DNA of 64,000 bases from Dehalococcoidia bacterium (GTDB lineage: Bacteria > Chloroflexota > Dehalococcoidia > SZUA-161 > SpSt-899). The stretch's first letter is position 1. Each line of letters begins with the position of its first letter. Where the stretch lies: NCBI GenBank assembly GCA_048539495.1, contig JBLYPS010000003.1:31486-95485 (forward strand). Reading direction: 5' to 3'. Below, piece by piece: positions 18,561 through 63,630 of this stretch. The notes under the pieces are model-generated. The model saw only the letters and a program-made list of their open reading frames with translations, ran no database searches and was not told where the DNA came from. The translations under genes and the position numbers were made by a program.

Positions 18561-18562
18561 AG

Positions 18563-18943: not shown

Positions 18944-19353
18944 CTTGGTCTCACCATTATTTCAAGTATATTACTAATATCGTCATCTACATAAAGCCAC
19001 CACTCCTCATCCAATCTATCTAAAAGATTCAGGGAGTCTTCAGGTGATAAGTTAGTTTTTATGATAATAAAAAGTCCTTCGAAATCTTCCTCGTGGTCGT
19101 GGTGAAGTTCTAACTCAAGAACAATATCATTACCAAACACACGTCTAATTTGCCAAAAGGCCTCTAACAAGACAGCCAATAATTCATGCTCTATAATGAA
19201 ACTTATAATTTCTGCTTCAGGATTGATAAAACTATATAATTGAAAGAGAGAGCTGACATTATCGGGCATAAAAAGTTCATTTTCTGTCAATGCTTCCGGG
19301 AAAGTCAAGGTTGTCATTTCTTTTCCTCTCCCTACCGCATTCTCACTACTCAT
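18940..19353 (-). CDS. Hypothetical acidic protein in the restriction-modification operon
   Basis: The 137-aa ORF has 4-nt overlaps with both neighbours and is low GC. Confidence 0.4.
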   Translation of the reverse strand: MSSENAVGRGKEMTTLTFPEALTENELFMPDNVSSLFQLYSFINPEAEIISFIIEHELLAVLLEAFWQIRRVFGNDIVLELELHHDHEEDFEGLFIIIKTNLSPEDSLNLLDRLDEEWWLYVDDDISNILEIMVRPR

Positions 19354-19356
19354 ACC

Positions 19357-20160: not shown

Positions 20161-20372
20161 GGTTCATTTTTCCTACTATGTTCTTTATGTGATTGGCTCA
20201 AAAAATCTTCCATACCTATCCCAAATTTATTTTCAAAGCCCTTCTTTGCAATATCTTCATATTCACTGAAATTGGCAATAAACAAATCTAATAGGCTGGA
20301 AACACAATATTTACAACCACCGTCACACTCAAAAATTATCTCAATTACTTTTTGAGCTTCATCTTTTCTCAT
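20157..20372 (-). CDS. Small Cys-containing hypothetical protein
   Basis: The 71-aa ORF has the motif 'CDGGCKYC' and is translationally coupled to mod and the next ORF. Confidence 0.3.
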   Translation of the reverse strand: MRKDEAQKVIEIIFECDGGCKYCVSSLLDLFIANFSEYEDIAKKGFENKFGIGMEDFLSQSHKEHSRKNEP

Positions 20373-21483
20373 TTTCCGTCAAATCCTTTGAATTATGAAT
20401 GTCTAAAAGCCTTTTTCTGGTAACCTGAATGGCAAACTTGGATAAATCAGAGCCTATCCATTTTCTGCCTAATTTCTCTGCTGTTGCTAAGGTTGTGCCT
20501 GAGCCACAGAAGAAATCTGCAACGATGTCGCCGGGGTCCGTTGTAGCCATTAATAAAACTTGCAAAAGTCCCTCGGATTTTTGGGTCAGAAAGTTTAGAC
20601 ACTCAGCAGAAACATTTATGACAGGTTTTACATTAACTGTTAGTAGTTTGCTGTTATTCAAAACTAATGTGATTTTGTCCTGTAGCACATCTCGCAAAAG
20701 CACATCCGCATAATATCTTCCACTTGCATCCCTAAGAGAAGTAAAAAACGGTTTTTCGTAATAAACTCTTTCTTTTAGTTTATTAAATTTAGGGTTTGCA
20801 TTTTTAGAATAGAATAAAATAATATCATGCTTCTTAGGAAAATCGGCTTCTTTACTCGGGGCGCCCCCTGTTCTATAACACCATGATATCTCATTTCTAA
20901 AACCTAGCTTATTTTCTCCACCCGGTCCGAAAACTTCGTCCATCATCACCTTAACATAATGTCCCGCATGCCAGTCAAGGTGCACATAGATAGAACCATT
21001 TTCAGCCAATAATTCCCTCATCAAAACCAACCGCTCATACATATATTCGAGATAAGAAGCAATCCCACCGCTCCAGGTATCCTTATAAGCCCGCTCTTCT
21101 ATGATAGATGGCTCCTTTTCTATTGCTTCGTCTCCAATTTTTGTTCTTATCGTAAAATCTGAACCTGTGAAAAACGGCGGGTCAATGTAAATCAGATTTA
21201 TCTTCCCAACCCAGCCCTGTTTAATCAGAGAACTCATCACTAATTTGTTATCGCCCCAGATAAGAAGATTCTTCCAGTCCTTTGAATAATTGGCGGGATA
21301 CTCGTCTTCGGGGAAAAATGAAATCGTATATCCACCCTTAATTCTGGGCTTGTTTACTGTTTCAACAACCTGAAATGGGAGATTGGGTTTTTCTATCGGT
21401 TTCTTCTCCCCTTTTTCGTATCGGTCGTATTTTTCTGCCCAGAGCAGCTCTACGTACTTCTTGTTATCAGGCATCTTTATCAC
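20359..21483 (-). CDS. mod: Beta-class N6-adenine/N4-cytosine DNA methyltransferase (Type III Mod-like, compact)
   Basis: Motif IV 'IYIDPPFFTG' comes before motif I 'DFFCGSGTTLATAEKLGRKWIGSDL', which is the beta-class order. At 374 aa it is short for a Type III Mod. Confidence 0.8.
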   Translation of the reverse strand: MIKMPDNKKYVELLWAEKYDRYEKGEKKPIEKPNLPFQVVETVNKPRIKGGYTISFFPEDEYPANYSKDWKNLLIWGDNKLVMSSLIKQGWVGKINLIYIDPPFFTGSDFTIRTKIGDEAIEKEPSIIEERAYKDTWSGGIASYLEYMYERLVLMRELLAENGSIYVHLDWHAGHYVKVMMDEVFGPGGENKLGFRNEISWCYRTGGAPSKEADFPKKHDIILFYSKNANPKFNKLKERVYYEKPFFTSLRDASGRYYADVLLRDVLQDKITLVLNNSKLLTVNVKPVINVSAECLNFLTQKSEGLLQVLLMATTDPGDIVADFFCGSGTTLATAEKLGRKWIGSDLSKFAIQVTRKRLLDIHNSKDLTENEKR

Positions 21484-21611
21484 CCCTTAGCCTACCTGCA
21501 AAGATTATTGCACAATTCCTCCTGTTATTGCGAGCAAAGTGAAGCAAGATCATCAGGGGGATTCTCGCCCTGAAACCCCCTAAAGCGGTTGACGGTTCTG
21601 TTCGTTTGTGC

Positions 21612-21640
21612 TTGACATAGGGTTTCCCCTTCCTTATAAT
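21612..21640 (+). promoter_or_regulatory. Consensus sigma70 promoter (TTGACA-17-TATAAT)
   Basis: 'ttgaca' at 21612-21617 and 'tataat' at 21635-21640 are separated by a 17-nt spacer. The promoter sits upstream of the HNH gene start at 21667. Confidence 0.5.
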
Positions 21641-21666
21641 TACAGTAAATAGGTTGGGGGTGAAAG

Positions 21667-21906
21667 ATGGGACAATTTCCTGAGTCAGTTAAGGATGATG
21701 CTTTCAAACGAAGTCGTGGCCGATGCGAATGTTGGCGTAAAACTCATAAGTGGCATAAAGGTAGATGTAAAACTATTATTAAGCGTAATAAGAATATGCA
21801 TTACCATCATATTCGTTCCAAAGGCCCTGATACTCTTGCAAATTGTGAGGTCCTTTGTATTGAGTGTCATGAGAAAACTCGCTCCTATGGTCGCTCAGAA
21901 TTCTAA
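21667..21906 (+). CDS. HNH endonuclease-domain small protein
   Basis: The 'CECW...HKGRC...HYHHIRSKGPDTLANCEVLCIECH' pattern matches an HNH/zinc-finger nuclease motif. Confidence 0.6.
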   Translation: MGQFPESVKDDAFKRSRGRCECWRKTHKWHKGRCKTIIKRNKNMHYHHIRSKGPDTLANCEVLCIECHEKTRSYGRSEF

Positions 21907-21974
21907 AAACTAAACCCGTTTGACTGCTTTATGCCCTGGAGTCATAAAGGGGCTTCGCTTCCGTCAATCCTGGC

Positions 21975-23492
21975 TTAGCCGGGGACTGTCCTTAACTGTG
22001 GAAACAGGATCACCTCCCGAATGGACTGGTGTCCAGTGAGGAGCATCACCAGCCGGTCGACCCCCATCCCCAACCCGCCCGTCGGGGGCATGCCGTGTTC
22101 TAAGGCCAGAAGGAAGTCCTCATCGATCCTCTCTGCCTCTTCATCGCCGAAGAGAGCTCTCACTCTTTCCTGTTCCTCGAAGCGCTCTCGCTGTTCCAGA
22201 GGGTCGTTGAGCTCACTGAAGGCATTGGCGATTTCCATTCCTCCGGCGAAGGCTTCGAATCGCTCCACCAGGTGGTCGCATCCCGGCTTTCTCTTGGCCA
22301 GGGGCGATAGCTTCACCGGGTAATCCATGAGGAATGTCGGCTGGATCAGGTTGGGCTCGACCGTATGGGAAAGTAAGTAATCAACGAGCTTGCCCCAACT
22401 CATTCCTTCCTCGACGCGGAGGCCGGTTTTCCTTATCTCTGCCTCGAGCGAGCGTGCGTCGGGGAAAGCCTCGAAATCGACCCCGCTTCCTTCTTTGATC
22501 GCCTCGCGCAGGGTGAGGCGCTGCCAGGGTGGAGAGAGGTCCACTGTCAGCTCGCCAAAGCTGATTCTCATCGTCCCCAAAACCTCCTTGGCGATGAAGG
22601 AGACCATTTGCTCGACCATCTCCATCACATCGTGGTAATCGGCATAGGCCTGGTAGCTCTCCAGAGTAGTGAATTCGGGATTATGTTTGGTAGAGATGCC
22701 TTCGTTGCGGAATATCCGCCCGATCTCGTAGACCCTGTCGAAGCCCCCGATAATGAGCCGTTTCAGATGAAGTTCGGTGGCGATGCGCAGATAGAGGTCG
22801 CTATCGAGGGCATGATGATGGGTAGCAAAAGGCCTGGCTAAAGCCCCGGCGGCAAGCGACTGCAACACCGGCGTTTCCACTTCGATGAATCCGCGCTTCT
22901 CAAGGAAACGTCGCATGGCCGAAATCGCCTGACTGCGCACCTCAAATGTGCGCCTTACCTGCTCGTTAGAGAGGAGATCGAGATATCGTTGGCGGTAGCG
23001 CTTCTCGACATCGGCAAGCCCATGCCACTTCTCGGGCAGAGGCTGCAGTGACTTCGACAGCATCGTGAAGTCGGATACCTTAACGGTGATCTCCCCGGCC
23101 CGAGTCTCGAAGAGCTCTCCTTCAACACCGATGAAATCGCCGATGTCGAAGTCTTGAAGCAGGCTATACTTCTCTTCGCCTATGGCATCCCGCTGGAGAT
23201 AGGCCTGAACCTTGCCCGATCCATCCCTGATATCCAGAAAGATAGCCTTGCCCATGGAGCGCATGGCTGTAATACGACCGGCGAGCTTCAGAGTCTGGAG
23301 ACGCTTCGCTCTGGAGACGATTTGCTCTGGAATCCCACTCCCCTCGACTCTCGACTCTCGATAGAGAGTGATGGCTTCCTGCGTAGTATGGCTACATAAG
23401 TATCGGGCAGGGTATGGATTGACACCGCGACTGCGGATTCTCTGGAGCTTGTCCAAGCGGCTTTGGATTAACTCTGCTTTTCTTTGTGCCAT
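21975..23492 (-). CDS. lysS: Lysyl-tRNA synthetase (class II)
   Basis: An OB-fold N-domain 'GRITAMRSMGKAIFLDIRDGSGKVQ' and a class II core are present. The gene lies downstream of greA, as in many bacteria. Confidence 0.9.
   Translation of the reverse strand: MAQRKAELIQSRLDKLQRIRSRGVNPYPARYLCSHTTQEAITLYRESRVEGSGIPEQIVSRAKRLQTLKLAGRITAMRSMGKAIFLDIRDGSGKVQAYLQRDAIGEEKYSLLQDFDIGDFIGVEGELFETRAGEITVKVSDFTMLSKSLQPLPEKWHGLADVEKRYRQRYLDLLSNEQVRRTFEVRSQAISAMRRFLEKRGFIEVETPVLQSLAAGALARPFATHHHALDSDLYLRIATELHLKRLIIGGFDRVYEIGRIFRNEGISTKHNPEFTTLESYQAYADYHDVMEMVEQMVSFIAKEVLGTMRISFGELTVDLSPPWQRLTLREAIKEGSGVDFEAFPDARSLEAEIRKTGLRVEEGMSWGKLVDYLLSHTVEPNLIQPTFLMDYPVKLSPLAKRKPGCDHLVERFEAFAGGMEIANAFSELNDPLEQRERFEEQERVRALFGDEEAERIDEDFLLALEHGMPPTGGLGMGVDRLVMLLTGHQSIREVILFPQLRTVPG
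23288..23372. repeat. Tandem-unit repeat inside the lysS N-terminal region
   Basis: The sequence 'ctggagacgcttcgctctggagacgatttgctctggaatcccactcccctcgactctcgactctcgatagagagtg' contains repeated ctctggagacg and actctcg units around a 'cccactcccctcg' core. Confidence 0.4.
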
Positions 23493-28476: not shown

Positions 28477-28549
28477 GGGGATTGGGAAGTGTGAAATCAT
28501 CCTGTTTGAGAGGGGAGAGCACATTTCTTTTGCGAACTGTGTATTGCCC

Positions 28550-28750
28550 TAACCCGGACGAGCCGGAACCAACAAGGCATATTGTCGTTTAAATTCGAAA
28601 TTCGAAGCACGAAATACTAAACAAATCCCAAAGTTCAAATGTTCAAAACTGCCCCATATTTGGAATTTTCCTATTTGGATTTGTTTAGTGCTTAGAAATT
28701 AGGATTTAGGATTTTTCCATTTTGCGCAAGACTTTAGACTTAAGGGACTA
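28550..28750 (+). repeat. ~200-bp direct repeat, copy 1 (island boundary or noncoding element)
   Basis: It is about 93% identical to 44690-44889 in the same orientation. It contains the internal inverted repeat 'cgaagcacgaaatactaaacaaatcc' / 'ggatttgtttagtgcttag'. Confidence 0.7.
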
Positions 28751-31343: not shown

Positions 31344-32012
31344 ATGAAAAGGTCGCTAATGTACTTTAAAGCCGTAGTCTTCGATCTCGACGGAACGCTT
31401 CTTGACACGCTGGAAGATATTGCCCACTCCGCAAATACTGTGCTGGCAAGACGCGGCTTCCCCACACACAGCCTGGACGACTACCGTTATTTCGTGGGCG
31501 AAGGGGTGACTACGCTTATTACCCGCGTGCTGCCCGACGAGAAACGGAACGATGACACCATAGCGGAGTGCGTAAGGGCATTTCGGGAAGAGTATGGTCG
31601 TAACTGGAATGTGAAGACGACGCCATATGACGGTGTGCCGCAGATGCTCGATGAGCTGGCGTCGCGCCATCTAAAACTGGCAGTGCTCTCCAACAAGCCG
31701 GATGATTTCACCAAAAAATGTGTCACGGAACTCCTGCCAGACTGGACATTCGAGATAGTTTTGGGCCTCCACAGTGGAATTCCGCCCAAGCCGGACCCAA
31801 CAGGTGCCTCTCAGGTAGCTGAGTACTTGAGTGTCCCGCCGTCACGCATCCTCTACGTGGGGGATTCCGGCATAGATATGAAGACAGCCATCGCTGCCGG
31901 CATGTTCCCGCTAGGGGTACTCTGGGGATTCAGGTCACAAGAGGAGCTCCAGGATAACGGGGCGCAGGCACTGATCTCACGACCACAGGAGATTTTGGCT
32001 GTCTTGTATTAG
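31344..32012 (+). CDS. HAD-superfamily phosphatase (phosphoglycolate phosphatase-like)
   Basis: Motif I 'VVFDLDGTLLDT', 'LSNKP' and 'VGDSGIDMKTA' are present. The 5' 138 bp of this gene are duplicated at 34962-35100. Confidence 0.7.
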   Translation: MKRSLMYFKAVVFDLDGTLLDTLEDIAHSANTVLARRGFPTHSLDDYRYFVGEGVTTLITRVLPDEKRNDDTIAECVRAFREEYGRNWNVKTTPYDGVPQMLDELASRHLKLAVLSNKPDDFTKKCVTELLPDWTFEIVLGLHSGIPPKPDPTGASQVAEYLSVPPSRILYVGDSGIDMKTAIAAGMFPLGVLWGFRSQEELQDNGAQALISRPQEILAVLY

Positions 32013-34961: not shown

Positions 34962-35100
34962 GATCGCTAATGTACTTTAAAGTCGTAGTCTTCGATCTCG
35001 ACGGAACGCTTCTTGACACGCTGGAAGATATTGCCAACTCCGTAAATACTGTCCTGGCAAGACGCGGCTTCCCCACACACAGCCTGGACGACTACCGCTC
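34962..35100 (+). repeat. Segmental duplicate of the 5' end of the HAD phosphatase gene
   Basis: It is about 95% identical to 31352-31490 and encodes 'MYFKVVVFDLDGTLLDTLEDIANSVNTVLARRGFPTHSLDDYR'. It is then interrupted by the family F repeat. Confidence 0.7.
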
Positions 35101-44621: not shown

Positions 44622-44689
44622 CCTATCTTTATTTATATACTAATTCGTTATATGGTTCAAGCTAAACATCTGTGAGGCTTTATTTACGC

Positions 44690-44889
44690 CAACCCAGACA
44701 AGCCGGAACCAACAAGGCATATTGTCGTTTAAATTCGAAATCCGAAGCACGAAATACTAAACAAATCCCAAATCCCAATGTTCAAATGTTCAAAACTGCC
44801 TCATATTTGGAATTTTGCTATTTGGATTTGTTTAGTGCTTAGAAATTAGGATTTAGGATTTTCCATTTTACGCAAGACTTTAGATTTAA
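44690..44889 (+). repeat. ~200-bp direct repeat, copy 2
   Basis: It matches 28550-28750. It lies between the mutL 3' end and the Lon-like gene's 5' end, and it may carry that gene's promoter. Confidence 0.7.
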
Positions 44890-44921
44890 GGGACTAACCT
44901 GTCTTGTTCTATTCCCGAACT

Positions 44922-52096: not shown

Positions 52097-52172
52097 TGGG
52101 CAATGGGTAATGGGGTGTTACGCGGTACCCCTATAACCTATGACCTATAACCTATAACCTCGGATAAACATG
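52090..52172. repeat. Family C palindromic repeat
   Basis: The sequence is 'gggtaatgggcaatgggtaatggggtgttacgcggtacccctataacctatgacctataacctataacctcgg'. Confidence 0.6.
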
Positions 52173-53325: not shown

Positions 53326-53370
53326 AGCAAGGGATAAGGGATAGGGGATAACCCCTAACCCATAGCTATG
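53326..53370. repeat. Family C' repeat ((GGGATAA/GGGATAG)n ... CCCCTAACCC)
   Basis: The sequence is 'gcaagggataagggataggggataacccctaacccatagctatgg'. The rplV ATG lies inside its last unit. Confidence 0.5.
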
Positions 53371-54381: not shown

Positions 54382-54416
54382 ACTGAAGGCTGAAGACTGT
54401 TAGATTACTTCAGCCC
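54381..54416. repeat. Family B palindromic repeat
   Basis: The sequence is 'gactgaaggctgaagactgttagattacttcagccc'. The rpsC stop is embedded. Confidence 0.45.
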
Positions 54417-54426
54417 ATCTAGAAAA

Positions 54427-54903
54427 ATGTTGCAGCCAAAGAGAGTAAAATTTCGTAAGAGCCAGCGTGGCCGTCGCAGGGGCAAGGCATACTCGGGCAA
54501 CATGGTGGACTTCGGCGAGTTCGGATTGCAGGCTCTCGAGCCAGCCTGGATCACCAGTCGCCAGATCGAGGCCGCCAGGCGGGCCATCGTGCACCATATC
54601 AAGCGCGGAGGTCAGGTTTGGATTCGTATCTTCCCGGACAAACCGGTCAGCGCCCGGCCGCCAGAGACTAGAATGGGCAAGGGTAAGGGGCCGGTGGATC
54701 ACTGGGTGGCAGTGGTGAAACCGGGCAGAGTGCTATTTGAGATCGCCGGCATTCGCGAGGACACGGCACGAGAGGCGCTGCGCCTAGCCTCACATAAACT
54801 TCCTATTTCTACCCGGATGATTACAAAAGAACAAAGGATAGCCACAGAGGTCACAGAGAAAATGAATCAAAAGAATCTCTCTGTGTGCTCTGTGGCTGAA
54901 TAA
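54427..54903 (+). CDS. rplP: 50S ribosomal protein L16 with a repeat-encoded C-terminal tail
   Basis: '[16 protein letters not shown]' matches L16. The last ~20 residues '[21 protein letters not shown]' are encoded by the family E hairpin. Confidence 0.9.
54836..54903. repeat. Family E hairpin (GGATAGCCACAGAG ... CTCTGTGTGCTCTGTGGCTGAATAA)
   Basis: The sequence is 'ggatagccacagaggtcacagagaaaatgaatcaaaagaatctctctgtgtgctctgtggctgaataa'. A copy is at 62943-63017. Each sits immediately upstream of a small r-protein gene start. Confidence 0.6.
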
Positions 54904-54907
54904 AAGA

Positions 54908-55105
54908 GTGCGAATAAGCGAGATTCGGAAACTGAGTTACCAAGAGTTGACGCGAGAGCTTGAGAGCTCCCACCGGGAGCTTTTTAATCTGCGATTCAGG
55001 GCAGCTACCAGGCAATTGACAAACTATCGTGAGATCAATAAGGTGAAGAAGGATATCGCCAGACTCAAGACGGTGATCCGGGAAACGGAGCTATCGGGGA
55101 GTTAG
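54908..55105 (+). CDS. rpmC: 50S ribosomal protein L29
   Basis: '[25 protein letters not shown]' matches L29. The gene uses a GTG start. Confidence 0.9.
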
Positions 55106-55110
55106 ATGTT

Positions 55111-55368
55111 ATGGGGAACAGACGAACCCTTGTGGGCAACGTGGTGAGCAATAAGATGGATAAGACCGTCGTGGTGATGGTTACCAGACGCCATCAACAC
55201 CCCCACTATAAGAAGTACATTGAGGAGAGCAAGAAATTCAAGGCCCATGACGAGACTAACGCCTGCAATGTCGGTGATAGGGTAAAAATCATCGAAACGC
55301 GACCCCTATCCCGGGAAAAGCGTTGGAGAGTGGCCGAGGTCCTGGCTAAAAAGGCTGAAGGAGGCTAA
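55111..55368 (+). CDS. rpsQ: 30S ribosomal protein S17
   Basis: '[16 protein letters not shown]' matches S17. The C-terminal 'AEGG' and the stop are encoded by the family B repeat. Confidence 0.95.
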
Positions 55369-55391
55369 TAGCCTAACAGTCTTCAGCCTAT
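55352..55391. repeat. Family B palindromic repeat
   Basis: The sequence is 'aggctgaaggaggctaatagcctaacagtcttcagcct'. Confidence 0.5.
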
Positions 55392-55412
55392 CCGCCTACG
55401 AAATGAGGAATC

Positions 55413-55781
55413 ATGATTCAGATATACACCAGACTTAAAGTTGCGGACAACACCGGCGCGCGGGAAATCATGTGTTTCAACATCCCCGGAGGTACGAAGA
55501 GAAGATATGCGACGGTGGGGGATTTGATCGTGGCCTCAGTTAAGGAGACCGTACCCGGTTCTGCAGTCAAGAAAGGGGAGGTAGTGCGAGCGGTGGTGGT
55601 CCGCGTGGTGAAGACATATGGCCGTCGCGATGGCTCGCATATCCGGTTCGACGAGAATGCCGCGGTTATCTTAGACGAAAGAGGAAATCCCAAAGGTAGC
55701 CGCATATTTGGTCCCGTAGCGCGAGAGCTTCGGGAGAAGAATTTCATGAAGATTGTCTCGCTGGCCCCCGAGGTACTGTGA
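55413..55781 (+). CDS. rplN: 50S ribosomal protein L14
   Basis: '[17 protein letters not shown]' matches L14. Confidence 0.95.
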
Positions 55782-55806
55782 CGGGCAAGATGCCCGTCCT
55801 ACGAAG

Positions 55807-56121
55807 ATGAGAAAAATACGAAAGAATGACGAGGTGGTGGTAATCTTGGGAAGGGATCGGGGAAAGAAAGGGAAGGTTCTGATCTCTACCCCGGACGCCG
55901 ATCGTCTGATAGTCGAAGGGGTCAACATGATCAAGCGCCATACGAAACCCGGGCGTACCATGAGACAAGCCGGAATCATCGAGCGAGAAGCGACGCTGCA
56001 CATCTCCGATGTGAAGTTGATCTGCAAGAAGTGTAACCAGCCTAGCCGGGTTGGGTTTCGTCTCCTGGAAGACAGGAGCAAGGTCAGATTTTGCAAGAAA
56101 TGCCATGAGGTGATCGATTAA
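55807..56121 (+). CDS. rplX: 50S ribosomal protein L24
   Basis: '[24 protein letters not shown]' matches the KOW motif of L24. The start is at the internal ATG. Confidence 0.9.
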
Positions 56122-56669
56122 TGGCTCAGATGCCACGACTTAGGCAGAGGTACCTCCAGGAAATAGCCCCTCAGATGATGAAGGAGCAGGGATACCGAAG
56201 CATAATGAGAGTGCCACGTCTGGAGAAGATCGTGCTCAACATAGGTCTGGGCGAAGCTATCCAGAACCCTAAAGCTCTGGAAGCAGCCTCTAACGACCTG
56301 GCGACAATCTCGGGACAACGCCCGGTGACTACCCGCGCCAGGAAGTCGATAGCTGGCTTCAAGCTGCGCCAGGGCATGGCTATCGGACTGTCCGTGACCC
56401 TAAGGAATAGGAGGATGTACGATTTCCTGGATCGGTTGGTTAATGCAGTCCTCCCTCGTATAAGGGACTTTCATGGCGTCTCCCAAGATTCCTTCGACGG
56501 CCGAGGTAACTACTCTTTAGGAATAAAGGAGCAGATTATCTTCCCCGAGATAAACTATGCTAAAATAGATAAGATTCGAGGTTTACAGGTTTCTATCGTG
56601 ACTACGGCACGCACCGATGAGGAAGGGAGGCGTCTTCTGGAGCTCATGGGCATGCCCTTTGCTAGATAA
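56121..56669 (+). CDS. rplE: 50S ribosomal protein L5
   Basis: '[15 protein letters not shown]' matches L5. Confidence 0.95.
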
Positions 56670-56743
56670 ACAAGTACTCTGGGTCGTCTCTGACCCAGAG
56701 TACCATCTTCGAGGTCAGGAACGACCTCGAATACGGAGATAAT

Positions 56744-56929
56744 GTGGCGAAGACTTCTCAAATAGTAAAATCACAGAAAACCCCCAAATATGCGGTGAGG
56801 CATAGGAATCGCTGCCGCCTCTGTGGCCGACCCCGGGCCTACCTGCGCTATTTTGAGCTCTGCCGCATTTGCTTCCGAAAGCTGGCCAACGAGGGACTCC
56901 TCCCCGGGGTGAGGAAGTCCAGTTGGTAA
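56744..56929 (+). CDS. rpsN: 30S ribosomal protein S14 type Z (zinc-binding)
   Basis: The 61-aa product has 'CRLCGR...CRICFR' motifs. Confidence 0.95.
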
Positions 56930-56944
56930 TCCAGGAGAGCAACC

Positions 56945-57346
56945 ATGAGTACAACTGATGTTATAGCCGATATGTTAACCAGAGTAAGGAACGCCAATAT
57001 GGTTGGCGCTGATTTCACCCTGGTTCCTTCCTCTAAGATCAAGATCGCCATCGCCGAGGTGATCAAGGATCAGGGATTCATCAAAAATTACGAGATATTG
57101 ATGAGCAATACACCACAGCGGGTCATAAAGATACACCTTAAGTATACTGCGGAAAAGAAGCCGATACTGAAAGGCCTTAAGCGTGTAAGTAAACCCGGTA
57201 TGAGGGTGTATGCAGGAAAAGGGGAAATCCCGCGAGTATATGGCGGATTAGGGATCGCCATTCTCTCTACTCCCCAGGGGATAATGGTGGGAAAAGAGGC
57301 ATGGAGGAAAGGCATTGGCGGGGAGATTCTATGCTATGTATGGTAA
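56945..57346 (+). CDS. rpsH: 30S ribosomal protein S8
   Basis: 'TDVIADMLTRVRNA' matches S8. Confidence 0.95.
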   Translation: MSTTDVIADMLTRVRNANMVGADFTLVPSSKIKIAIAEVIKDQGFIKNYEILMSNTPQRVIKIHLKYTAEKKPILKGLKRVSKPGMRVYAGKGEIPRVYGGLGIAILSTPQGIMVGKEAWRKGIGGEILCYVW

Positions 57347-57352
57347 GAGACG

Positions 57353-57898
57353 ATGTCGAGAGTAGGTAGAAAGCCGATACCAGTACCTGAAGGGGTTGAG
57401 GTGAACTTTAAGAGAGGCGAGATTTTCGCCAGAGGACCCCGGGGAACGCTCAGCCGTTCCATACCCCCCGATATGTTGATTGAACTTAGTAATGGGGTTC
57501 TCACAGTATCAAGGCCTACAGACAATAAGATCCACCGCTCCCTTCACGGCCTCACCAGGACGCTTATCGCCAACATGGTTCAAGGGGTAAGCGAGGGATT
57601 TCAAAAGGGTCTGGAGGTCATGGGAGTGGGATACCGAGTCCAGATTTCGGGAGAGAAACTGATCTTCCAACTGGGTTATTCCCGTCCTGTCGAGATCTCG
57701 GCTCCAGCAGGTATATCATTTAGTGTCGAAGGAACCAATAAAGTGATAGTCTCAGGGATCGATAAGGAGCTGGTGGGTAAGGCATCAGCGCAGATTAGAG
57801 CGCTGAGATCACCCGACCATTACAAAGGTAAGGGCATACGTTATTCCGGCGAGCGAGTGCGTCTCAAGGCAGGCAAATCAGGGAAGGCGAGAGAATAG
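57353..57898 (+). CDS. rplF: 50S ribosomal protein L6
   Basis: 'MSRVGRKPIPVPEGVEV' matches L6. Confidence 0.95.
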   Translation: MSRVGRKPIPVPEGVEVNFKRGEIFARGPRGTLSRSIPPDMLIELSNGVLTVSRPTDNKIHRSLHGLTRTLIANMVQGVSEGFQKGLEVMGVGYRVQISGEKLIFQLGYSRPVEISAPAGISFSVEGTNKVIVSGIDKELVGKASAQIRALRSPDHYKGKGIRYSGERVRLKAGKSGKARE

Positions 57899-57976
57899 GC
57901 ATTCAGCCATCAGTCAGTAGGTCGATTTTCCAAAGCGACGTTTTTGTCGAGATATGAACCTCGACCCAACAATATT

Positions 57977-58345
57977 ATGACAAGTGCGATAGACACCAGA
58001 GCTAACCGAAGGAAGCGGCATCTGCGGACTCGAAGGAAGGTCCGGGGTACGGCTATCAGGCCTCGTCTTTGCGTTTTCCGCAGCCTGAAGTATGTCTATG
58101 CCCAGCTTCTGGATGATACATCGGGGCAGACACTGACGTCAGCTTCCTCGATTGATCCCGAGTTGAGGGCACATACTCAATCTAAGACCAAGACCGAGGA
58201 TGCTAGACTCGTGGGCGCATTATTGGGCCGGCGAGCCCAGGATAAGGGAATTGAGCAGGTTGCCTTCGACCGTGGGGGATACAAGTATCACGGCCGGGTT
58301 AAAGTACTGGCAGAGGCAGTTAGAGAAACGGGACTAAAATTCTAG
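57977..58345 (+). CDS. rplR: 50S ribosomal protein L18
   Basis: '[26 protein letters not shown]' matches L18. A TTG at 57944 is an alternative start. Confidence 0.9.
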
Positions 58346-58395
58346 GGATAAGGGATAGGGGATAACCCATAACACTTAACCCCTAGCGGATTGAA
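58346..58395. repeat. Family C' repeat (GGGATAA units)
   Basis: The sequence is 'gggataagggataggggataacccataacacttaacccctagcgg'. The rplR TAG stop lies in the leading 'ctaggg'. Confidence 0.5.
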
Positions 58396-58401
58396 ACAAA
58401 G

Positions 58402-58938
58402 ATGAATGAAAGAATTGATCCAGAGGGACTAAGCCTGACTGAGACGTTGGTTCATGTCAGACGAGTGGCCAAGACGGTGGGCGGAGGGCGAAAACTTTCC
58501 TTCAGTGCCCTGGTAGTGGTTGGCGATAATCAGGGTCATGTAGGCTCCGGCCTTGGCAAGGGCAAAGAAATTCCGGTGGCCATCGGAAAGGGGACAGCCG
58601 CAGCCAAGAAGAACCTTATTCGGGTGCCGATGAATGGGAGCACTATTACTCACGAGATAACTGCCAAGTTTGGCGCTGCTAAGGTCTTGCTCAAACCAGC
58701 AGCCCCTGGAACCGGAGTGATTGCCGGCAAGGCAGTCCGATCCGTGATTGAGTCCGCCGGGATAAAGGATATCCTGAGTAAATCGCTGGGCAGCACTAAT
58801 CCTATCAATGTAGTTCAGGCGACTATACGCGCGCTGAGCGAGCTAAAGGATCCGAAACGAGAGTCAAGAGTCCAGACTCCAGAGTCGAGAGTCAAGGAGG
58901 GAGGGGAACTCCAGAATCCACTTGACATTGTCAGATGA
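58402..58938 (+). CDS. rpsE: 30S ribosomal protein S5 with a repeat-derived C-terminal extension
   Basis: An S5 dsRBD and C-terminal domain are present. The tail '[28 protein letters not shown]' is encoded by a heptamer array (58858-58900) and the end of the MITE-like element. Confidence 0.9.
58858..58900. repeat. Heptamer array with G-rich core inside the rpsE 3' end
   Basis: The sequence is 'gagtcaagagtccagactccagagtcgagagtcaaggagggagggg'. Confidence 0.55.
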
Positions 58939-59040
58939 GGTGGTAACGATGAATTTCTTTCTGTCATTGCGAGCGAAGCGAAGCAATCTCGGTGGCAGGG
59001 AGGAGATTGCTTCGTCGCCTTCGGCTCCTCGCAATGACAT
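58921..59040. mobile_element. Partial copy of the MITE-like element (family A hairpin plus one terminal inverted repeat)
   Basis: 'cttgacattgtcag' matches the left terminal repeat of the 3838-4101 element. The hairpin pairs 'gtcattgcgagcgaagcgaagcaatctc' with 'gattgcttcgtcgccttcggctcctcgcaatgac'. It supplies the rpsE stop codon. Confidence 0.55.
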
Positions 59041-59060
59041 GGGAATGGGGCAAGAGAAGA

Positions 59061-59264
59061 ATGGAGATATCTAAACTGCGCATTACCTGGAAGAGGAGCG
59101 CTATCGGTTATCCCAGCAATCAAAGGAGGGTGGTCAAGGCCCTAGGATTTCGCTTGTTGAACGACGTAGTTGAGCATAATGATTCGGCACAAATTCGCGG
59201 CATGATCAGGAAGATCCGGCATCTGGTCGAGGTGGAAGAAATCGGACGGGAAGGTGAGGCTTGA
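59061..59264 (+). CDS. rpmD: 50S ribosomal protein L30
   Basis: 'LRITWKRSAIGYPSNQRRVVKALGFRLLND' matches L30. The start is at the ATG at 59061, immediately after the hairpin. Confidence 0.9.
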   Translation: MEISKLRITWKRSAIGYPSNQRRVVKALGFRLLNDVVEHNDSAQIRGMIRKIRHLVEVEEIGREGEA

Positions 59265-59707
59265 AACAGAACGAGTTGCGTCCCGCGGCAGGGTCCAAAC
59301 ATAAACGGAAGAGGGTGGGCCGTGGCCCCGGCAGCGGCCACGGCACCTATTCCTGCCGTGGCATCAAGGGACAGAAGTCTCGATCTGGGGGCGGGGTTCG
59401 CCCACTCTTTGAAGGGGGACAGAATCCCCTGGCTAAGCGATTGCCCTACAAGAGAGGTTTTACCAATATCTTCCGTACGGAATATGCCATCGTTAATGTA
59501 GAGCGATTAAATGTCTTTCCTGAGGGTGCGGAGGTAACCCCACAGGAGCTGGTATCCGCCGGGATCCTCAAAGGGCTCAGTGACCCAATCAAGATTCTGG
59601 GGCAGGGTGAGCTCACTCACCAGTTAGTGGTCAAGGCCAACAAGTTCTCACAGGCGGCTAAGAATAAGATAGAGGGTGCTGGGGGAAGAGTGGAGGTGAT
59701 CACCTGA
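59261..59707 (+). CDS. rplO: 50S ribosomal protein L15
   Basis: 'KRVGRGPGSGHGTYSCRGIKGQKSRSGGG' matches L15. Confidence 0.95.
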   Translation: MKQNELRPAAGSKHKRKRVGRGPGSGHGTYSCRGIKGQKSRSGGGVRPLFEGGQNPLAKRLPYKRGFTNIFRTEYAIVNVERLNVFPEGAEVTPQELVSAGILKGLSDPIKILGQGELTHQLVVKANKFSQAAKNKIEGAGGRVEVIT

Positions 59708-59733
59708 TGCAACGTTCAGGAGGAGGGGGCGGG

Positions 59734-61056
59734 ATGCCCAAATTACTGCAGGCCGTGATGGACTCCCTCCGTCACCCCGAATTGAGGCGGAAGCTACTTT
59801 TCACCTTCGGCATTCTGGTGATTTTTCGCTTTATGGCCCATATTCCGCTGCCGGGGGTGGATGCAGTGGCACTCCGTAAGCTTTTCGATGCGGGGGATAT
59901 GCCACTCTTAGGTATGCTCGACCTCTTCACAGGGGGGGCATTACGGAACTTCAGCATAGTCGCCGTGGGGATTTTCCCCTACATAACTGCCTCGATCATA
60001 ATGCAGCTTCTGGTGCCGGTGATTCCCCAACTTCAGGCGCTGTCTAAAGAAGGAGAGGGCGGGAAAAACAAACTGAAGCAGTATACTCTCTGGCTGACTG
60101 TCCCCCTGGCTATGCTTTCGGGGTATGGGCAATTGGTCCTCTTCAGTCGGCCCCTGGTGGCGGGGATAGAGCCTGCCATCAGAGACGTCGGCTTCCAACT
60201 CCCCACGATATCAATGGTGCTTTCTCTCACGGCGGGCACGATGCTGCTCGTATGGCTCGGGGAACGCATCACCGAGAGCGGCATCGGTAATGGCATCTCG
60301 ATAATCATTTTCGGCGGGATCGTGGCCGGGATGCCCGAGCAAATGATGCTCACACACGAGGTTGCTCGGATCGGCGGCCTGCTGAGCCTGATTATATTGA
60401 TGGTTGTCATTGCCCTGTTGATAGTGTTTGTGACTGAGGCCAGCCGGCGCGTTCCGGTTCAGTATTCACGAAGCACCTTCCGTGGCGGAAGGGTTTATCG
60501 TCAGAGCGGGGGGACGCACATTCCCCTTAAGGTAAACTCCACCGGCATGATCCCCATCATCTTTGCTTTCGCCATAATAATGTTTCCCCCAACGATAGCC
60601 AGCTACTTTGCTAATCCCGTGGGGCAAGATCCCAACCTTGCTAATTGGATTCAAGATGCCTTCAACCCCGCAGGAGACTATTGGTGGGCTTACTATGGAT
60701 TTCTTTTCCTCCTTGTCGTTGGCTTTACCTTCTTCTACACGATAGTTACCTTCGAGCAGCAGAATATCCCCGAGACTTTACAGAAACAAGGGGGTTTTAT
60801 TCCGGGTATTCGCCCCGGGAGGTCAACGGCAGAGTACGTTAATGGAGTTCTTATGCGAATAACCTGGGGCGGGGCGATATTTCTGGGGTTCATAGCGATC
60901 TCGCCGGTGGTTGCCCAGTGGGCTGCCGGTGTCGACGTCCCCGTTATGATTATCGGGGGGGTGGGATTGCTCATTGCGGTCGGGGTGATTCTCGATACCA
61001 TGAGGCAAATGGAGGCGCAGCTCCTGATGCGTCATTACGAAGGATTCATTAAGTGA
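59734..61056 (+). CDS. secY: Preprotein translocase subunit SecY
   Basis: A 10-transmembrane SecY profile is present. The start is probably MPKLLQAV, preceded by an AGGAGG site. The ORF in the track extends to 59707. Confidence 0.9.
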   Translation: MPKLLQAVMDSLRHPELRRKLLFTFGILVIFRFMAHIPLPGVDAVALRKLFDAGDMPLLGMLDLFTGGALRNFSIVAVGIFPYITASIIMQLLVPVIPQLQALSKEGEGGKNKLKQYTLWLTVPLAMLSGYGQLVLFSRPLVAGIEPAIRDVGFQLPTISMVLSLTAGTMLLVWLGERITESGIGNGISIIIFGGIVAGMPEQMMLTHEVARIGGLLSLIILMVVIALLIVFVTEASRRVPVQYSRSTFRGGRVYRQSGGTHIPLKVNSTGMIPIIFAFAIIMFPPTIASYFANPVGQDPNLANWIQDAFNPAGDYWWAYYGFLFLLVVGFTFFYTIVTFEQQNIPETLQKQGGFIPGIRPGRSTAEYVNGVLMRITWGGAIFLGFIAISPVVAQWAAGVDVPVMIIGGVGLLIAVGVILDTMRQMEAQLLMRHYEGFIK

Positions 61057-61127
61057 ACGGGTTCAAGGCTCAGAGTTCAAGGTTCAAGGTTGAACCGTGA
61101 ACCGTGAACCGTAAACCGTGAACCGCA
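61054..61127. repeat. Family D palindromic repeat ((GGTTCAA)n / (TGAACCG)n)
   Basis: The sequence is 'tgaacgggttcaaggctcagagttcaaggttcaaggttgaaccgtgaaccgtgaaccgtaaaccgtgaaccg'. The secY TGA stop is its first unit. Confidence 0.6.
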
Positions 61128-61151
61128 ATAATTATTATGGAGGCTGAATAA

Positions 61152-61802
61152 ATGAACATCATTCTTCTTGGTGCCCCCGGGGCAGGCAAGGGAACTCAAG
61201 CAGAGATAATCTCTAAAGGCTTGGGGCTGGCTCATATCGCATCCGGTGATCTTTTTCGACAGGCACAGAACAGTGGAACGGAGCTGGGGAATATCGCCAG
61301 GTCTTATATGGAGAGAGGCCTCCTGGTTCCCGATGAGGTGACGGTTAAAATGGTTCTGGAACGTATCGCCGCACCCGATTGTGGCCAAGGTTTCATTCTG
61401 GATGGCTTCCCTAGAACCCTGCAGCAGGCTGAGGCGCTGGAGGCAGCCTTGAGAGCGGAGAATAAGGGCATAGACAGAGTGCTTTACGTCAAGGTGTCGA
61501 GGGAGGAGCTGGTCCGGCGACTCTCCGGACGCTGGATTTGCCGCGATTGCCAGGCGCCGTATCATGCAATCGCTAAGCCCCCGAAAGTGGCGGGCAAGTG
61601 CGACCACTGCGGAGGAGAGCTTTACCAGCGTCCTGACGACGCCGAGGAGACCGTACAAAAACGCATAGAGGTCTATCTCTCTCAGACCGCTCCCCTGATC
61701 GGCTATTATGCTGAGAAGGGGAAGCTCCTGGAGGTAGAGGGTGCTCAGAGTGTGGAGAGGGTGAGCCAGGAGGTACTCGCTGCCCTCAGTATGCAGCGTT
61801 AG
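61152..61802 (+). CDS. adk: Adenylate kinase (with a Cys4 LID zinc motif)
   Basis: 'ILLGAPGAGKGTQA' and 'CRDCQAPYH...CDHCGG' motifs are present. Confidence 0.95.
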   Translation: MNIILLGAPGAGKGTQAEIISKGLGLAHIASGDLFRQAQNSGTELGNIARSYMERGLLVPDEVTVKMVLERIAAPDCGQGFILDGFPRTLQQAEALEAALRAENKGIDRVLYVKVSREELVRRLSGRWICRDCQAPYHAIAKPPKVAGKCDHCGGELYQRPDDAEETVQKRIEVYLSQTAPLIGYYAEKGKLLEVEGAQSVERVSQEVLAALSMQR

Positions 61803-61889
61803 GAATTTAGGCTTTAGCCTTTCACTGAGCCGAGTGAAACCCTGAAGGGTTAATTCCAGAGCATAAAGCTGAAGTAGCCCCGACTAACA

Positions 61890-62636
61890 ATGGGTATCAT
61901 AATTAAGTCGCCAAACGAAATAAATATAATGCGCCAGGCAGGACGGATCGTAGCAACTATTCTCGCTGCCTTGAAAAGCGAGGTGAGGTCGGGCATAAGC
62001 ACCGGGATGCTGGATGCTATTGCCACACGGATGTTTCAAGAGTACGGGGCACGGGCGTCGTTCAATGGGTACCGAGGTTTTCCGGCCTCTATCTGCACAT
62101 CAGTGAACGAAGAGGTGGTTCATGGCCGGCCGGGGGGGAGAGTCCTTCAAGAAGGCGATCTGATTGCCATCGATGTGGGAGCGATATATAATGGTTTTCA
62201 GGGAGATGCGGCGATAACCGTGGGAGTGGGCCAGATAAGCCCCGAGGCGGAAAGTCTCATTGATACCACTCGCCGGTCTCTGGAAGCGGGTATCGCGGCA
62301 GCCCGCGAAGGGGCTCGTCTGAGCGACATTTCAGCGGCGATCCAGTTATGTGCCGAGTCCAATGGTTTCTCGCCGGTAAGACAATATGTGGGGCACGGGA
62401 TCGGTCGACAGATGCACGAAAAACCGGAGATTCCCAATTTCGGGCCGCCAGGCAAAGGGCCGATATTGAAACGAGGCATGACTCTGGCCCTGGAACCAAT
62501 GATCAACGCCGGCGGCTGGGCCACCAAGGTGCTCCCCGATCGCTGGACGGTGGTCACGGCCGATGGCAGCCTTTCGGCACATTTCGAGCATACCATCGCT
62601 ATCACCAATGGTGCAGCGGAGATACTGACTGTGTGA
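61890..62636 (+). CDS. map: Methionine aminopeptidase type I
   Basis: 'CTSVNEEVVHG' and 'DIGAIYNGFQGD' match metal-binding motifs of the enzyme. Confidence 0.9.
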   Translation: MGIIIKSPNEINIMRQAGRIVATILAALKSEVRSGISTGMLDAIATRMFQEYGARASFNGYRGFPASICTSVNEEVVHGRPGGRVLQEGDLIAIDVGAIYNGFQGDAAITVGVGQISPEAESLIDTTRRSLEAGIAAAREGARLSDISAAIQLCAESNGFSPVRQYVGHGIGRQMHEKPEIPNFGPPGKGPILKRGMTLALEPMINAGGWATKVLPDRWTVVTADGSLSAHFEHTIAITNGAAEILTV

Positions 62637-62716
62637 TGGGTGATGGGTAATAGGTAATGGGTGATGGGGGTTACGGGGTGCCCCTATAACCTATAACCTA
62701 TGACCTATAACAAGGA
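62634..62716. repeat. Family C palindromic repeat
   Basis: The sequence is 'tgatgggtgatgggtaataggtaatgggtgatgggggttacggggtgcccctataacctataacctatgacctataacaagg'. The map TGA stop is its first unit. Confidence 0.6.
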
Positions 62717-62719
62717 TTT

Positions 62720-62938
62720 ATGGCGAAAAAGGAAGCTATTGAGGTTGAGGGCACGGTGGTCGAACCCTTGCCCAATGGCATGTTCCGCGTGGAGTTGCCC
62801 AACGGGCACCTGGTATTAGCCCATGCATCGGGGAAAATGAGGCGCTATTTCATCAAGGTCGTGCGGGGGGATCGGGTTTTGGTGGAACTCTCGCCTTACG
62901 ATCTCTCACGAGGACGCATTACCTACCGTTTTAAGTAA
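62720..62938 (+). CDS. infA: Translation initiation factor IF-1
   Basis: '[21 protein letters not shown]' matches the S1-like IF-1 fold. Confidence 0.95.
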
Positions 62939-62942
62939 CAGA

Positions 62943-63017
62943 GGATAGCCACAGAGATCACGAATCAGAAGTAGGCAATCTTTAAGGAGTCGCTCTGTGT
63001 GCTCTGTGGCTGAATAA
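62943..63017. repeat. Family E hairpin, second copy (upstream of rpmJ)
   Basis: The sequence is 'ggatagccacagagatcacgaatcagaagtaggcaatctttaaggagtcgctctgtgtgctctgtggctgaataa'. Confidence 0.6.
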
Positions 63018-63022
63018 ATGAA

Positions 63023-63136
63023 ATGAAAGTCCGAGCTTCGGTTAAGCCCCGCTGTAACAAATGCAAGATTGTGAAACGTAAGGGCGTGGTGCGGGTTATT
63101 TGCTCTAATCCCAGGCATAAGCAGAGCCAAGGATGA
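63023..63136 (+). CDS. rpmJ: 50S ribosomal protein L36
   Basis: It encodes [37 protein letters not shown] (37 aa). It is not in the ORF track because it is under 60 aa. Confidence 0.9.
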
Positions 63137-63235
63137 TAGGTGATAGGTGATAGGTGATGGGTGATGGGTGATGGGGGTTACGCCGTACCCCTATTACCTA
63201 TTACCTATGACTTCTGGGGTAATGGGTAAAAGGAG
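63134..63235. repeat. Family C palindromic repeat ((GGTGATA)n/(GGTGATG)n ... GGGGTTACGCCGTACCCC ... (CTATTACC)n)
   Basis: The sequence is 'tgataggtgataggtgataggtgatgggtgatgggtgatgggggttacgccgtacccctattacctattacctatgac'. The rpmJ TGA stop is its first unit. Confidence 0.6.
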
Positions 63236-63240
63236 TAGAA

Positions 63241-63630
63241 ATGGCACGTATTGCAGGCGTTGACATTCCAGCGAACAAACAAGTCGAGATATCCCTTCGC
63301 TATATCTATGGAATTGGGCCTACGTTGAGCAAGAGGATACTAACCCAGACCGGCATTAATGCCAGCACCAGGGTTAGAGACCTTAGCGACGAGGAACTCA
63401 ATCGCCTCCGTGAAGTCATCAATAAACAATACAAGGTCGAGGGTGACTTAAGGAAAGAAGTCACCTTCAATATCAAGCGCTTCATTGAAATGGGGAGTTA
63501 CCGGGGGTTAAGACACCGGAGAGGACTTCCCGTTCGTGGTCAGAGGACCAAGACCAATGCTCGAACCAAGCGCGGGCCGGCCAAGACCGTGGCTGGCAGA
63601 GGTCGGCGACGGGGCATGACGAAGAAATAA
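63241..63630 (+). CDS. rpsM: 30S ribosomal protein S13
   Basis: '[18 protein letters not shown]' matches S13. Confidence 0.95.

Follow-up and report, generated by a model that had tools for sequence, protein, structure and literature searches.

The 64,000-nt stretch of DNA analysed here (the window), from a metagenome-assembled Dehalococcoidia (Chloroflexota) genome, contains an S10-spc-alpha ribosomal-protein gene cluster in which two related hairpins, members of a repeat family built from arrays of the heptamer CACAGAG (family E), lie immediately before the start codons of rpmC and rpmJ. The first hairpin, copy A, falls within the 3' end of the rplP open reading frame (ORF), and the second, copy B, fills the spacer between infA and rpmJ. 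The features at the two junctions are listed below; designations such as L119 refer to loci fetched from other genomes.

54427-54903, forward strand: rplP (uL16) ORF, 158 amino acids, with a TAA stop at 54901-54903; contains copy A
54834-54838, forward strand: Shine-Dalgarno-like AAGGA, 5' of hairpin A, placed by the empty sites in L129-L131; 9 nt from stem to GTG
54835-54903, forward strand: C-terminal extension of uL16, 22 codons plus TAA, from the ORF list, the shorter uL16 of relatives and the same peptide in in-frame copies elsewhere
54839-54899, forward strand: copy A, a CACAGAGnn-array hairpin, from pattern matches, fold and family-pattern match
54908-55105, forward strand: rpmC (bL29), GTG start 4 nt past the rplP stop; Pfam Ribosomal_L29 on the identical locus L119
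62720-62938, forward strand: infA, TAA at 62936-62938, 7 nt 5' of copy B; Pfam eIF-1a on L119
62941-62945, forward strand: Shine-Dalgarno-like GAGGA, 5' of hairpin B, placed by the empty sites in L130/L131 and kept as GAGGA in the sister species (L126)
62946-63013, forward strand: copy B, a CACAGAGnn-array hairpin, from pattern matches and fold
63023-63136, forward strand: rpmJ (bL36), ATG 9 nt past the GGCTGA of the element; aligns with the rpmJ of L130 (Pfam Ribosomal_L36)

Two CACAGAG-array hairpins lie just upstream of rpmC and rpmJ

A sequence-only reading of this DNA had noted a conserved hairpin before both genes, and the repeat is real: each of its halves occurs exactly twice in the window, on the forward strand (GGATAGCCACAGAGRTCAC at 54836 and 62943, CTCTGTGTGCTCTGTGGCTGAATAA at 54879 and 62993), against expectations of 0.02 and 0.00 from 100 shuffles, and both copies fold. 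A scan that allowed one mismatch per unit found no third copy of the CACAGAG element in the 64-kb window. The two copies agree over their leftmost 19 nt, apart from one R position, and over their rightmost 25 nt, and differ in their interiors. The left arm of the element repeats CACAGAG directly, with 2-nt spacers that give a 9-nt period, and the right arm holds the inverse, an array of CTCTGTG. Copy A accordingly reads TAGC-CACAGAG-gt-CACAGAG, loop, CTCTGTG-tg-CTCTGTG-GCTGA, and CACGAAT is what decay has left of the inner left unit in copy B. The hairpins are 61 nt (copy A) and 68 nt (copy B) long, share the outer stem UAGCCACAGAG/CUCUGUGGCUG, and have stems of mixed AU and GC pairs with 2x2 internal loops. 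Copy A folds with a predicted energy of -32.6 kcal/mol (z -6.7) and copy B with one of -26.6 kcal/mol (z -3.0), and the predicted hairpins still form when 146 nt of context are folded. Neither copy is followed by a U-tract (the 3' flanks are AATAAAAGA and AATAAATGAA for A and B, respectively), and no terminator-like call was made at 54899 or 63013.

Inspection of the start codons bore out two further points of the same reading, namely that the copies end 4-5 nt before the genes and that the starts are without an obvious Shine-Dalgarno sequence. The rpmC GTG lies 4 nt, and the rpmJ ATG 5 nt, past the repeat as that reading had delimited it (copy B ending at 63017 by this definition); counted from the 3' base of the hairpin, the gap to the start is ~8-10 nt and A-rich at both genes. 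The two starts line up with those of relatives (TTG/ATG), and in the predicted folds of both copies the start codon and the preceding 9-10 nt are unpaired. No Shine-Dalgarno-like tetramer occurs within 30 nt upstream of either start. Such a motif is missing in ~10 of the 23 genes of the ribosomal-protein cluster, however, so its absence at rpmC and rpmJ is not special.

Copy A had also been proposed to encode the C-terminal tail of L16, and a tail of 22 codons can indeed be read from the DNA. Where the ancestral rplP stop lay, the window has AGG, and the TAG that the element brings (54839-54841) is one base off the rplP frame, such that this frame continues through copy A to the TAA just past the element. 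The predicted tail peptide, RIATEVTE...SVCSVAE, matches the peptides of in-frame family copies in other genomes.

Two smaller features lie at these junctions. A mini-ORF, ATG AAA TGA, occupies 63018-63026, with its stop overlapping the rpmJ ATG (ATGA); it is not present in the sister species described below (AATAAATTCAAATG) and is therefore probably fortuitous. The 10-mer GGCTGAATAA occurs exactly three times (61142-61151, 54894-54903 and 63008-63017; ~0.1 expected for an exact 10-mer on both strands), and each occurrence finishes 0-5 nt before a start codon, that of adk, rpmC and rpmJ, respectively. The adk occurrence (GGAGGCTGAATAAATGAA) has 15 nt in common with the end of copy B. This 10-mer may represent a decayed end of the element, a preferred spacer or a chance recurrence.

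Relatives point to insertion at two pre-existing ribosome-binding sites

The identical 158-amino-acid uL16 is encoded in five NCBI assemblies, and this length was seen only in the same species; the uL16 proteins of relatives are mostly 135-142 amino acids long and end in ...ITK(E/A)Q. At the empty rplP-rpmC sites of three more distant relatives (L129-L131), the stop codon is followed by a 15-23 nt spacer with GGAG, GAGGAG or AGGAG, ~7-9 nt, and the rpmC TTG, and the empty infA-rpmJ sites (L130/L131) read stop-ATATC/ACAAT-GAGG-8 nt-ATG. Set against these empty sites, the window hairpins sit exactly between the Shine-Dalgarno-like motif and the spacer. This placement suggests that the AAGGA abutting hairpin A is probably a remnant of the ancestral rpmC Shine-Dalgarno sequence, and that the GAGGA abutting hairpin B is probably the ancestral rpmJ Shine-Dalgarno sequence. 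From GAGGA to the rpmJ ATG the distance is 77 nt along the linear sequence and ~10 nt with hairpin B folded out.

Both copies are held by a sister species whose uL16 is 94% identical. Its infA-rpmJ copy (L126) differs by few substitutions, two of them in the 3' arm. Its rplP-rpmC copy retains the termini only (GGATAGtCACA ... CTGTGGCTGAATAA); the interior is an unrelated heptamer hairpin, and the sister uL16 stops at an internal TGA inside this swapped hairpin. The resulting junction (L125 10229-10312) comprises a nested hairpin, GTGATTGGTAATTAGCGATTAG...CTAGTTACTAATCAC, within CACAGAG termini, and forms one continuous stem with a predicted energy of -43.9 kcal/mol, an arrangement that suggests hairpins to be preferred targets for further hairpin insertion. 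The presence of both copies in the two sister species, and their absence from distant relatives, indicates that the insertions predate the species split, and the swapped interior of the sister copy A indicates that the insertions do not need their own interior sequence.

The family is dispersed across distant phyla and gene contexts

A scan of one genome per GTDB species with the pattern TAGCCACAGAGN{25,55}CTCTGTGGCTGA returned at least 118 foreign loci that match this strict family pattern, against ~0.5 expected by chance (1.2e12 positions x 31 gap lengths / 4^23); the family statistics that follow rest on the matches listed. Judged by record title, the carriers span ~10 phyla, including Pseudomonadota, Acidobacteriota, Chloroflexota, Planctomycetota, Nitrospirota, Armatimonadota, Verrucomicrobiota and others. 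Among them are Betaproteobacteria (Sulfuritalea, Gallionella, Sideroxydans, Methylophilus), one Gammaproteobacterium, Anaerolineales and other Chloroflexota, Chthoniobacterales, a Syntrophaceae metagenome-assembled genome (MAG), Heliobacteriaceae-labelled MAGs and a Streptomycetaceae-labelled MAG. Several copies lie on contigs of 0.4-1 Mb, so this breadth is not due to mis-binning. The 116 distinct foreign copies measure 49-78 nt, with a median of 72.

When the termini of the pattern were left free, 31 stretches were found in IMG/VR viral contigs, and the closing base pairs proved variable (TAGC/GCTA, TCAC/GTGA, TAAC/GTTA, TCT/AGA) and the heptamer arrays constant. A consensus query also matched a Gemmatirosa megaplasmid and a Bacteroides plasmid. 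The strict pattern gave no matches in the viral contigs and the family no match in cultured phages; a phage vector is accordingly not supported, though the looser pattern does occur in IMG/VR contigs. The flanks specific to the window gave no matches in a metagenome collection that does not include the source species. Rfam returned nothing on the element, either in the window region, where a search at E<=1 gave only chance miRNA-type matches (E=0.05, 26 bits vs a gathering score of 99), or at gathering score in 18 foreign loci, and a full-text literature search for the terminal decamers retrieved unrelated primer matches only.

Examination of the gene context shows that, among the matches listed, the flanking genes are oriented (-,-) in 37 cases, (+,+) in 29, convergently (+,-) in 28 and divergently (-,+) in 18. 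The TAG of the element serves as the stop codon of the upstream co-oriented gene in 13 of 50 cases, with the stop no more than 30 nt away in another 17, and 32 of 49 downstream genes on the opposite strand stop 1-24 nt past the element. Fourteen of 105 copies (~13%) lie in-frame inside long ORFs, where they encode the peptide (S/I/L)ATE.TE...SV.SVA(K/N/E). Seven of the host ORFs were scanned, and in six of them the insert lies within or next to Pfam domains (ABC transporter (exporter), Mur ligase, GT1 glycosyltransferase, PanE/ApbA, AcrB and MoeA); the seventh, L013, has an N-terminal DUF1156 only, far from the insert. The sequence-only reading had named many copies away from gene starts as what would refute its proposal, and the family elsewhere shows this pattern: at least 118 copies in ~10 phyla occur in both orientations, ~14 of them within ORFs.

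All-against-all clustering and Pfam annotation of 822 ORFs from 118 neighbourhoods revealed no recurrent linked transposase family; the top neighbour clusters (ABC ATPases, response regulators and biosynthetic enzymes) represent ordinary housekeeping functions. Orientation relative to local GC skew is 50:44, without bias, and an IS200/IS605-like single-strand mechanism is unsupported by this strand test, itself a weak proxy.

The heptamers are conserved as sequence

The second unit on each arm, which was left free in the search pattern, is ~90% conserved per position, and the nn spacers are near random and do not pair (49 of 150 Watson-Crick, vs 42.6 +/- 5.4 in shuffles). Among the pair cells of the second units, 611 show the consensus, 12 are G-U, 40 are broken and 2 are compensatory. 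The heptamers are thus conserved as sequence; covariation, which had been suggested as a check on the hairpin RNA, gives no sign of selection for an RNA structure.

Units repeat every 9 nt in 195 of 215 cases and are not equally numerous in the two arms. Differences between orthologous copies comprise whole 9-nt units (L007 vs L107), spacers and loops. Arrays nearly always have an inverted partner no more than 130 nt away, with 2 solitary arrays in ~1 Mb of fetched loci. For any nn, the 9-nt unit contains no stop codon in five of the six frames, the exception being one frame of the CTCTGTG arm that reads TGA if the first spacer base is A; the terminal TAG and TGA lie outside the units. Stop-free units of this kind enable the element to sit inside ORFs.

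Interpretation as palindromic repeats tolerated at two ribosome-binding sites

We favour, with a probability of roughly 0.7, the interpretation that a small, non-autonomous palindromic repeat, akin in behaviour to REP/REPIN, MITE or Rickettsia palindromic elements (RPEs), gave rise to both hairpins long ago and that these copies have been tolerated at two ribosome-binding sites. The repeat would have entered the ancestor of the source and sister species at two very short intercistronic spacers, in each case between the Shine-Dalgarno sequence and an 8-10 nt spacer. At copy A, rplP would read through, gain a 22-residue tail and stop 4 nt short of the rpmC GTG, close enough to permit termination-reinitiation for rpmC. 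At copy B, the hairpin would fold out and return GAGGA to ~10 nt from the rpmJ ATG, by analogy with the split sites of T4 genes 25 and 38. Without a U-tract, neither copy should terminate transcription in the operon. The coding-compatible units, the fold-out of copy B and the missing U-tract all point to copies that are tolerated rather than purpose-built. Of the coupling or regulatory structure envisaged in the sequence-only reading, one part remains plausible, namely coupling of rpmC to rplP through the displaced stop, which would be independent of the hairpin; a dedicated structure is unsupported. The hairpins may nonetheless have a secondary local effect on the translation of rpmC and rpmJ.

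Several observations weigh against this interpretation. Neither a mobilising enzyme, nor terminal inverted repeats beyond the hairpin, nor a target-site duplication was found for the family; the two window copies and the flank profile of the family show no duplication, and the empty sites available are too diverged to define the junctions of family E. The heptamers are far more conserved than the spacers, orthologous copies included, and such a difference implies some constraint or homogenisation beyond what would be expected of a purely neutral passenger. Only two copies occur in the 64-kb window, both in the ribosomal-protein cluster and at the same place relative to a start codon, and neither has been lost since the sister species diverged, a period of turnover for other hairpins. 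The two also share flanks, CA[A/G]AGGA ... AATAAA[A/T]GA, that are atypical for the family (GGA before TAG, ATAAA after TGA), and the base preceding TAG is A in the window copies vs T in 79% of the foreign copies among the matches listed.

The alternative that fares best, although we consider it unlikely, is a domesticated split ribosome-binding site, in which each hairpin would loop out 58-66 nt and bring the Shine-Dalgarno sequence (AAGGA or GAGGA) to 9-10 nt from the start, acting as a positive element for rpmJ and perhaps for rpmC. The geometry agrees with this proposal: the Shine-Dalgarno-like motif abuts the 5' base of both stems, and 9-10 unpaired, A-rich nt lie between the 3' base and the start; the empty sites consist of a Shine-Dalgarno sequence, ~7-9 nt and a start, with the insertion point exactly between; and the arrangement is conserved in the sister species. 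A precedent exists in T4, where hairpins of ~16-17 nt, tested by mutation, reduce the spacing from 22 nt to 5 at gene 38 and from 27 nt to 11 at gene 25 (PMC3014915). The order of Shine-Dalgarno sequence, stem and start is the same here, and the modelled effective spacings would be AAGGA-9 nt-GUG and GAGGA-10 nt-AUG. Unlike the T4 cases, however, the insert of 58-66 nt belongs to a repeat family, is known from sequence and predicted fold, and forms loops three to four times longer than those of T4. Moreover, copy A would be translated by rplP ribosomes and hence be melted whenever the operon is expressed, initiation independent of a Shine-Dalgarno sequence seems common given the ~10 other cluster genes that have no such motif, and, among the matches listed, tight stop-element-start junctions elsewhere have no Shine-Dalgarno sequence 5' of the element.

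Distinctly less probable is a role at RNA 3' ends, where the hairpin could terminate or attenuate transcription, be processed by RNase III, or block 3' exonucleases and so tune the relative stability of operon segments. Some REP and Correia elements act at RNA 3' ends, in processing and stability. The present family likewise hugs stop codons in both orientations, has flanks with a mild excess of A 5' of the element and of T 3' of it, and would form a long, nearly perfect duplex in either transcript orientation; a stable stem-loop just past a stop codon is also a feature of intrinsic terminators. These differ from the window copies, however, in having a GC-rich stem and a U-tract, whereas the copies here have an AU/GC-mixed stem, lie inside an operon and are not called terminator-like, and five or more T in the 6-nt downstream window are found in just 0-35% of foreign copies, depending on context class. 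Termination within the S10-spc-alpha cluster would do harm, and copies inside ORFs cannot be terminators. A terminator reading is thus unsupported, the U-tract being lacking at the window copies and uncommon in the family.

Slightly less probable again is a host function at the DNA level, in which the arrays would be sites for a conserved DNA-binding protein of chromosome organisation, replication or repair, and the hairpin would be incidental. The strong conservation of the unforced second unit, the free and unpaired spacers, the non-compensatory nature of the changes and the recurrence of an identical heptamer in many phyla would all suit such a function, but we know of no candidate binding protein, an inverted partner accompanies almost every array, orientation is unbiased with respect to GC skew, and the density of 2 per 64 kb is very low.

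A dedicated cis-regulatory RNA that couples or gates the translation of rpmC and rpmJ, for example through ribosomal-protein binding or start occlusion, is very improbable and the two hairpins should not be annotated as a ribosomal-protein riboregulator: near-identical copies at equivalent positions before two small ribosomal-protein genes, retained in the sister species, would favour it, but the predicted folds leave the starts and the preceding 9-10 nt unpaired, neither junction carries the element in more distant Dehalococcoidia, the sister copy A has its interior swapped for an unrelated hairpin, the family occurs in both orientations, at convergent ends, in ORFs and beside unrelated genes, and neither covariation nor an Rfam match was found.

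Relation to known repeat families

REPINs are ~60-110 nt long, form a long hairpin, are mobilised by RAYT, and lie mostly just after genes, in both orientations and in many copies per genome (PMC3116915). Like REPs and REPINs, the CACAGAG elements are short dispersed hairpins with a preference for the 3' side of genes, in either orientation; they are retained at orthologous sites and can receive nested insertions. Each arm of a REPIN is a REP palindrome, however, whereas each CACAGAG arm repeats a non-palindromic heptamer head to tail every 9 nt, with the reverse complement confined to the other arm, and CACAGAG copies are also found inside ORFs (~13%). REPINs are further lineage-specific and accompanied by a flanking RAYT gene; the occurrence of the same heptamer in ~10 phyla argues against lineage specificity of this type, and no RAYT was found near copies in the 118 neighbourhoods, a survey in which a single RAYT per genome would probably be missed. 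With respect to MITEs, the inverted repeat spans the whole CACAGAG element and is closed by AGC/GCT or variants, which gives the element terminal inverted repeats, but no long parent insertion sequence with the same ends and a transposase was seen in the fetched loci, where the arrays are essentially always paired.

Palindromic repeats that lie in-frame in unrelated genes are known as RPEs in Rickettsia and as QMITE in Coxiella (PMC10969869, PMC5896051). Like RPEs, CACAGAG elements lie in-frame in unrelated housekeeping genes, to which they add a conserved peptide, and the uL16 tail is this same peptide. RPEs, by description, are set apart by their size (~100-150 bp; ~150 bp in PMC10969869), their restriction to one genus and the lack of tandem short units, in contrast to the 49-78 nt of the CACAGAG family and its spread over many phyla.

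Cyanobacteria carry heptamer repeats (STRR), and small dispersed repeats (SDR) were reportedly described by Elhai et al. (2008). TAACTGA direct repeats have been reported from Beggiatoaceae, Cyanobacteria and Bacteroidetes (PMC4679880). The CACAGAG family shares with STRR and TAACTGA repeats the tandem 7-nt-based units in spacers, among them spacers of ribosomal-protein operons and spacers just upstream of starts without a canonical ribosome-binding site. It also shares with TAACTGA repeats a spread over distant phyla without an evident transfer mechanism, and the window is full of heptamer hairpins. TAACTGA repeats, however, are direct, contain stop codons and are enriched upstream of starts, whereas the CACAGAG family has a 9-nt period and stop-free units, is almost always a hairpin and is enriched after stop codons.

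Taken further, and more tentatively than the interpretation as tolerated repeats, the CACAGAGnn hairpins could constitute an undescribed, coding-compatible palindromic family in ~10 phyla, whose heptamers would be maintained by trans-acting recognition or mobilisation rather than by RNA pairing, with two old copies built into ribosome-binding sites here, one encoding a uL16 tail and the other bridging a split Shine-Dalgarno sequence and start; we hold this fuller proposal to be possible, at somewhat less than an even chance. The odd 158-residue uL16 finds an explanation as read-through into a repeat. More broadly, a repeat with a constant heptamer in distant phyla, found near stop codons and in-frame within essential genes, offers a tractable case both for how sub-100-nt repeats spread without an obvious transposase and for the extent to which short repeats remodel protein termini, protein loops and ribosome-binding sites.

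A hairpin-rich ribosomal-protein cluster

The CACAGAG copies lie among many other hairpins, in that nearly every spacer of more than 40 nt in the S10-spc-alpha cluster holds a tandem-heptamer hairpin (GGGTAAT/ATTACCC, GGGATAG, CTGAAGG/CTTCAGC or TTCAAGG/GAACCGT). The spacers concerned are the following.

52097-52169: tandem-heptamer hairpin spacer
53326-53367: tandem-heptamer hairpin spacer
54382-54426: tandem-heptamer hairpin spacer
56670-56743: tandem-heptamer hairpin spacer
58346-58401: tandem-heptamer hairpin spacer
61057-61151: tandem-heptamer hairpin spacer
62637-62719: tandem-heptamer hairpin spacer
63137-63240: tandem-heptamer hairpin spacer

Most of these other hairpins are present in one sister species and missing in the other, indicating that gain and loss of hairpins is ongoing in the lineage, within which family E is an older, low-copy member. 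The sister comparison, with its rapid hairpin turnover between almost all ribosomal-protein genes, amounts to a natural experiment on what highly expressed operons tolerate.

A hint of target-site duplication for these hairpins comes from one filled/empty pair only, the secY-adk junction. The two genes overlap (ATGA) in the sister species (L126 ~6560-6570), and the window has a 95-nt hairpin insertion (61057-61151) with flanks, ATTAAGTGA ... ATAAATGA, in which the old junction is approximately duplicated over 8-9 nt; in the left copy ATG has mutated to GTG. The rpsE-rpmD spacer (58939-59060, 122 nt) holds a long hairpin of a different repeat type, GTCATTGCGAGCGAAGCGAAGCAATCTC...GAGATTGCTTCGTCGCC...CTCGCAATGAC; the corresponding sister spacer is 1 nt.

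Elsewhere in the window, 63193-63273, which reaches from just upstream of rpsM into its start, gives a near-threshold match to Rfam RF00140, the alpha-operon ribosome-binding site (36.6 bits vs a gathering score of 38, E 2e-5), as expected for the S4 autoregulatory site. Positions 16001-22000 have a G+C content of ~0.40, vs ~0.53-0.57 around them, with strongly negative GC skew, and may be an acquired island. Two pairs of direct repeats of ~130-200 nt, 86-97% identical (28544-28750 / 44684-44896, 16 kb apart, and 31353-31486 / 34964-35097, 3.6 kb apart), are both unrelated to the hairpin families. Finally, extra genes lie between rplC and rplD in several relatives (L125 6173-6571, Asp_protease_2-like; L129 6478-6863, two PaREP1 ORFs; L131 3964-6778, several ORFs), and this junction looks like an insertion hotspot.

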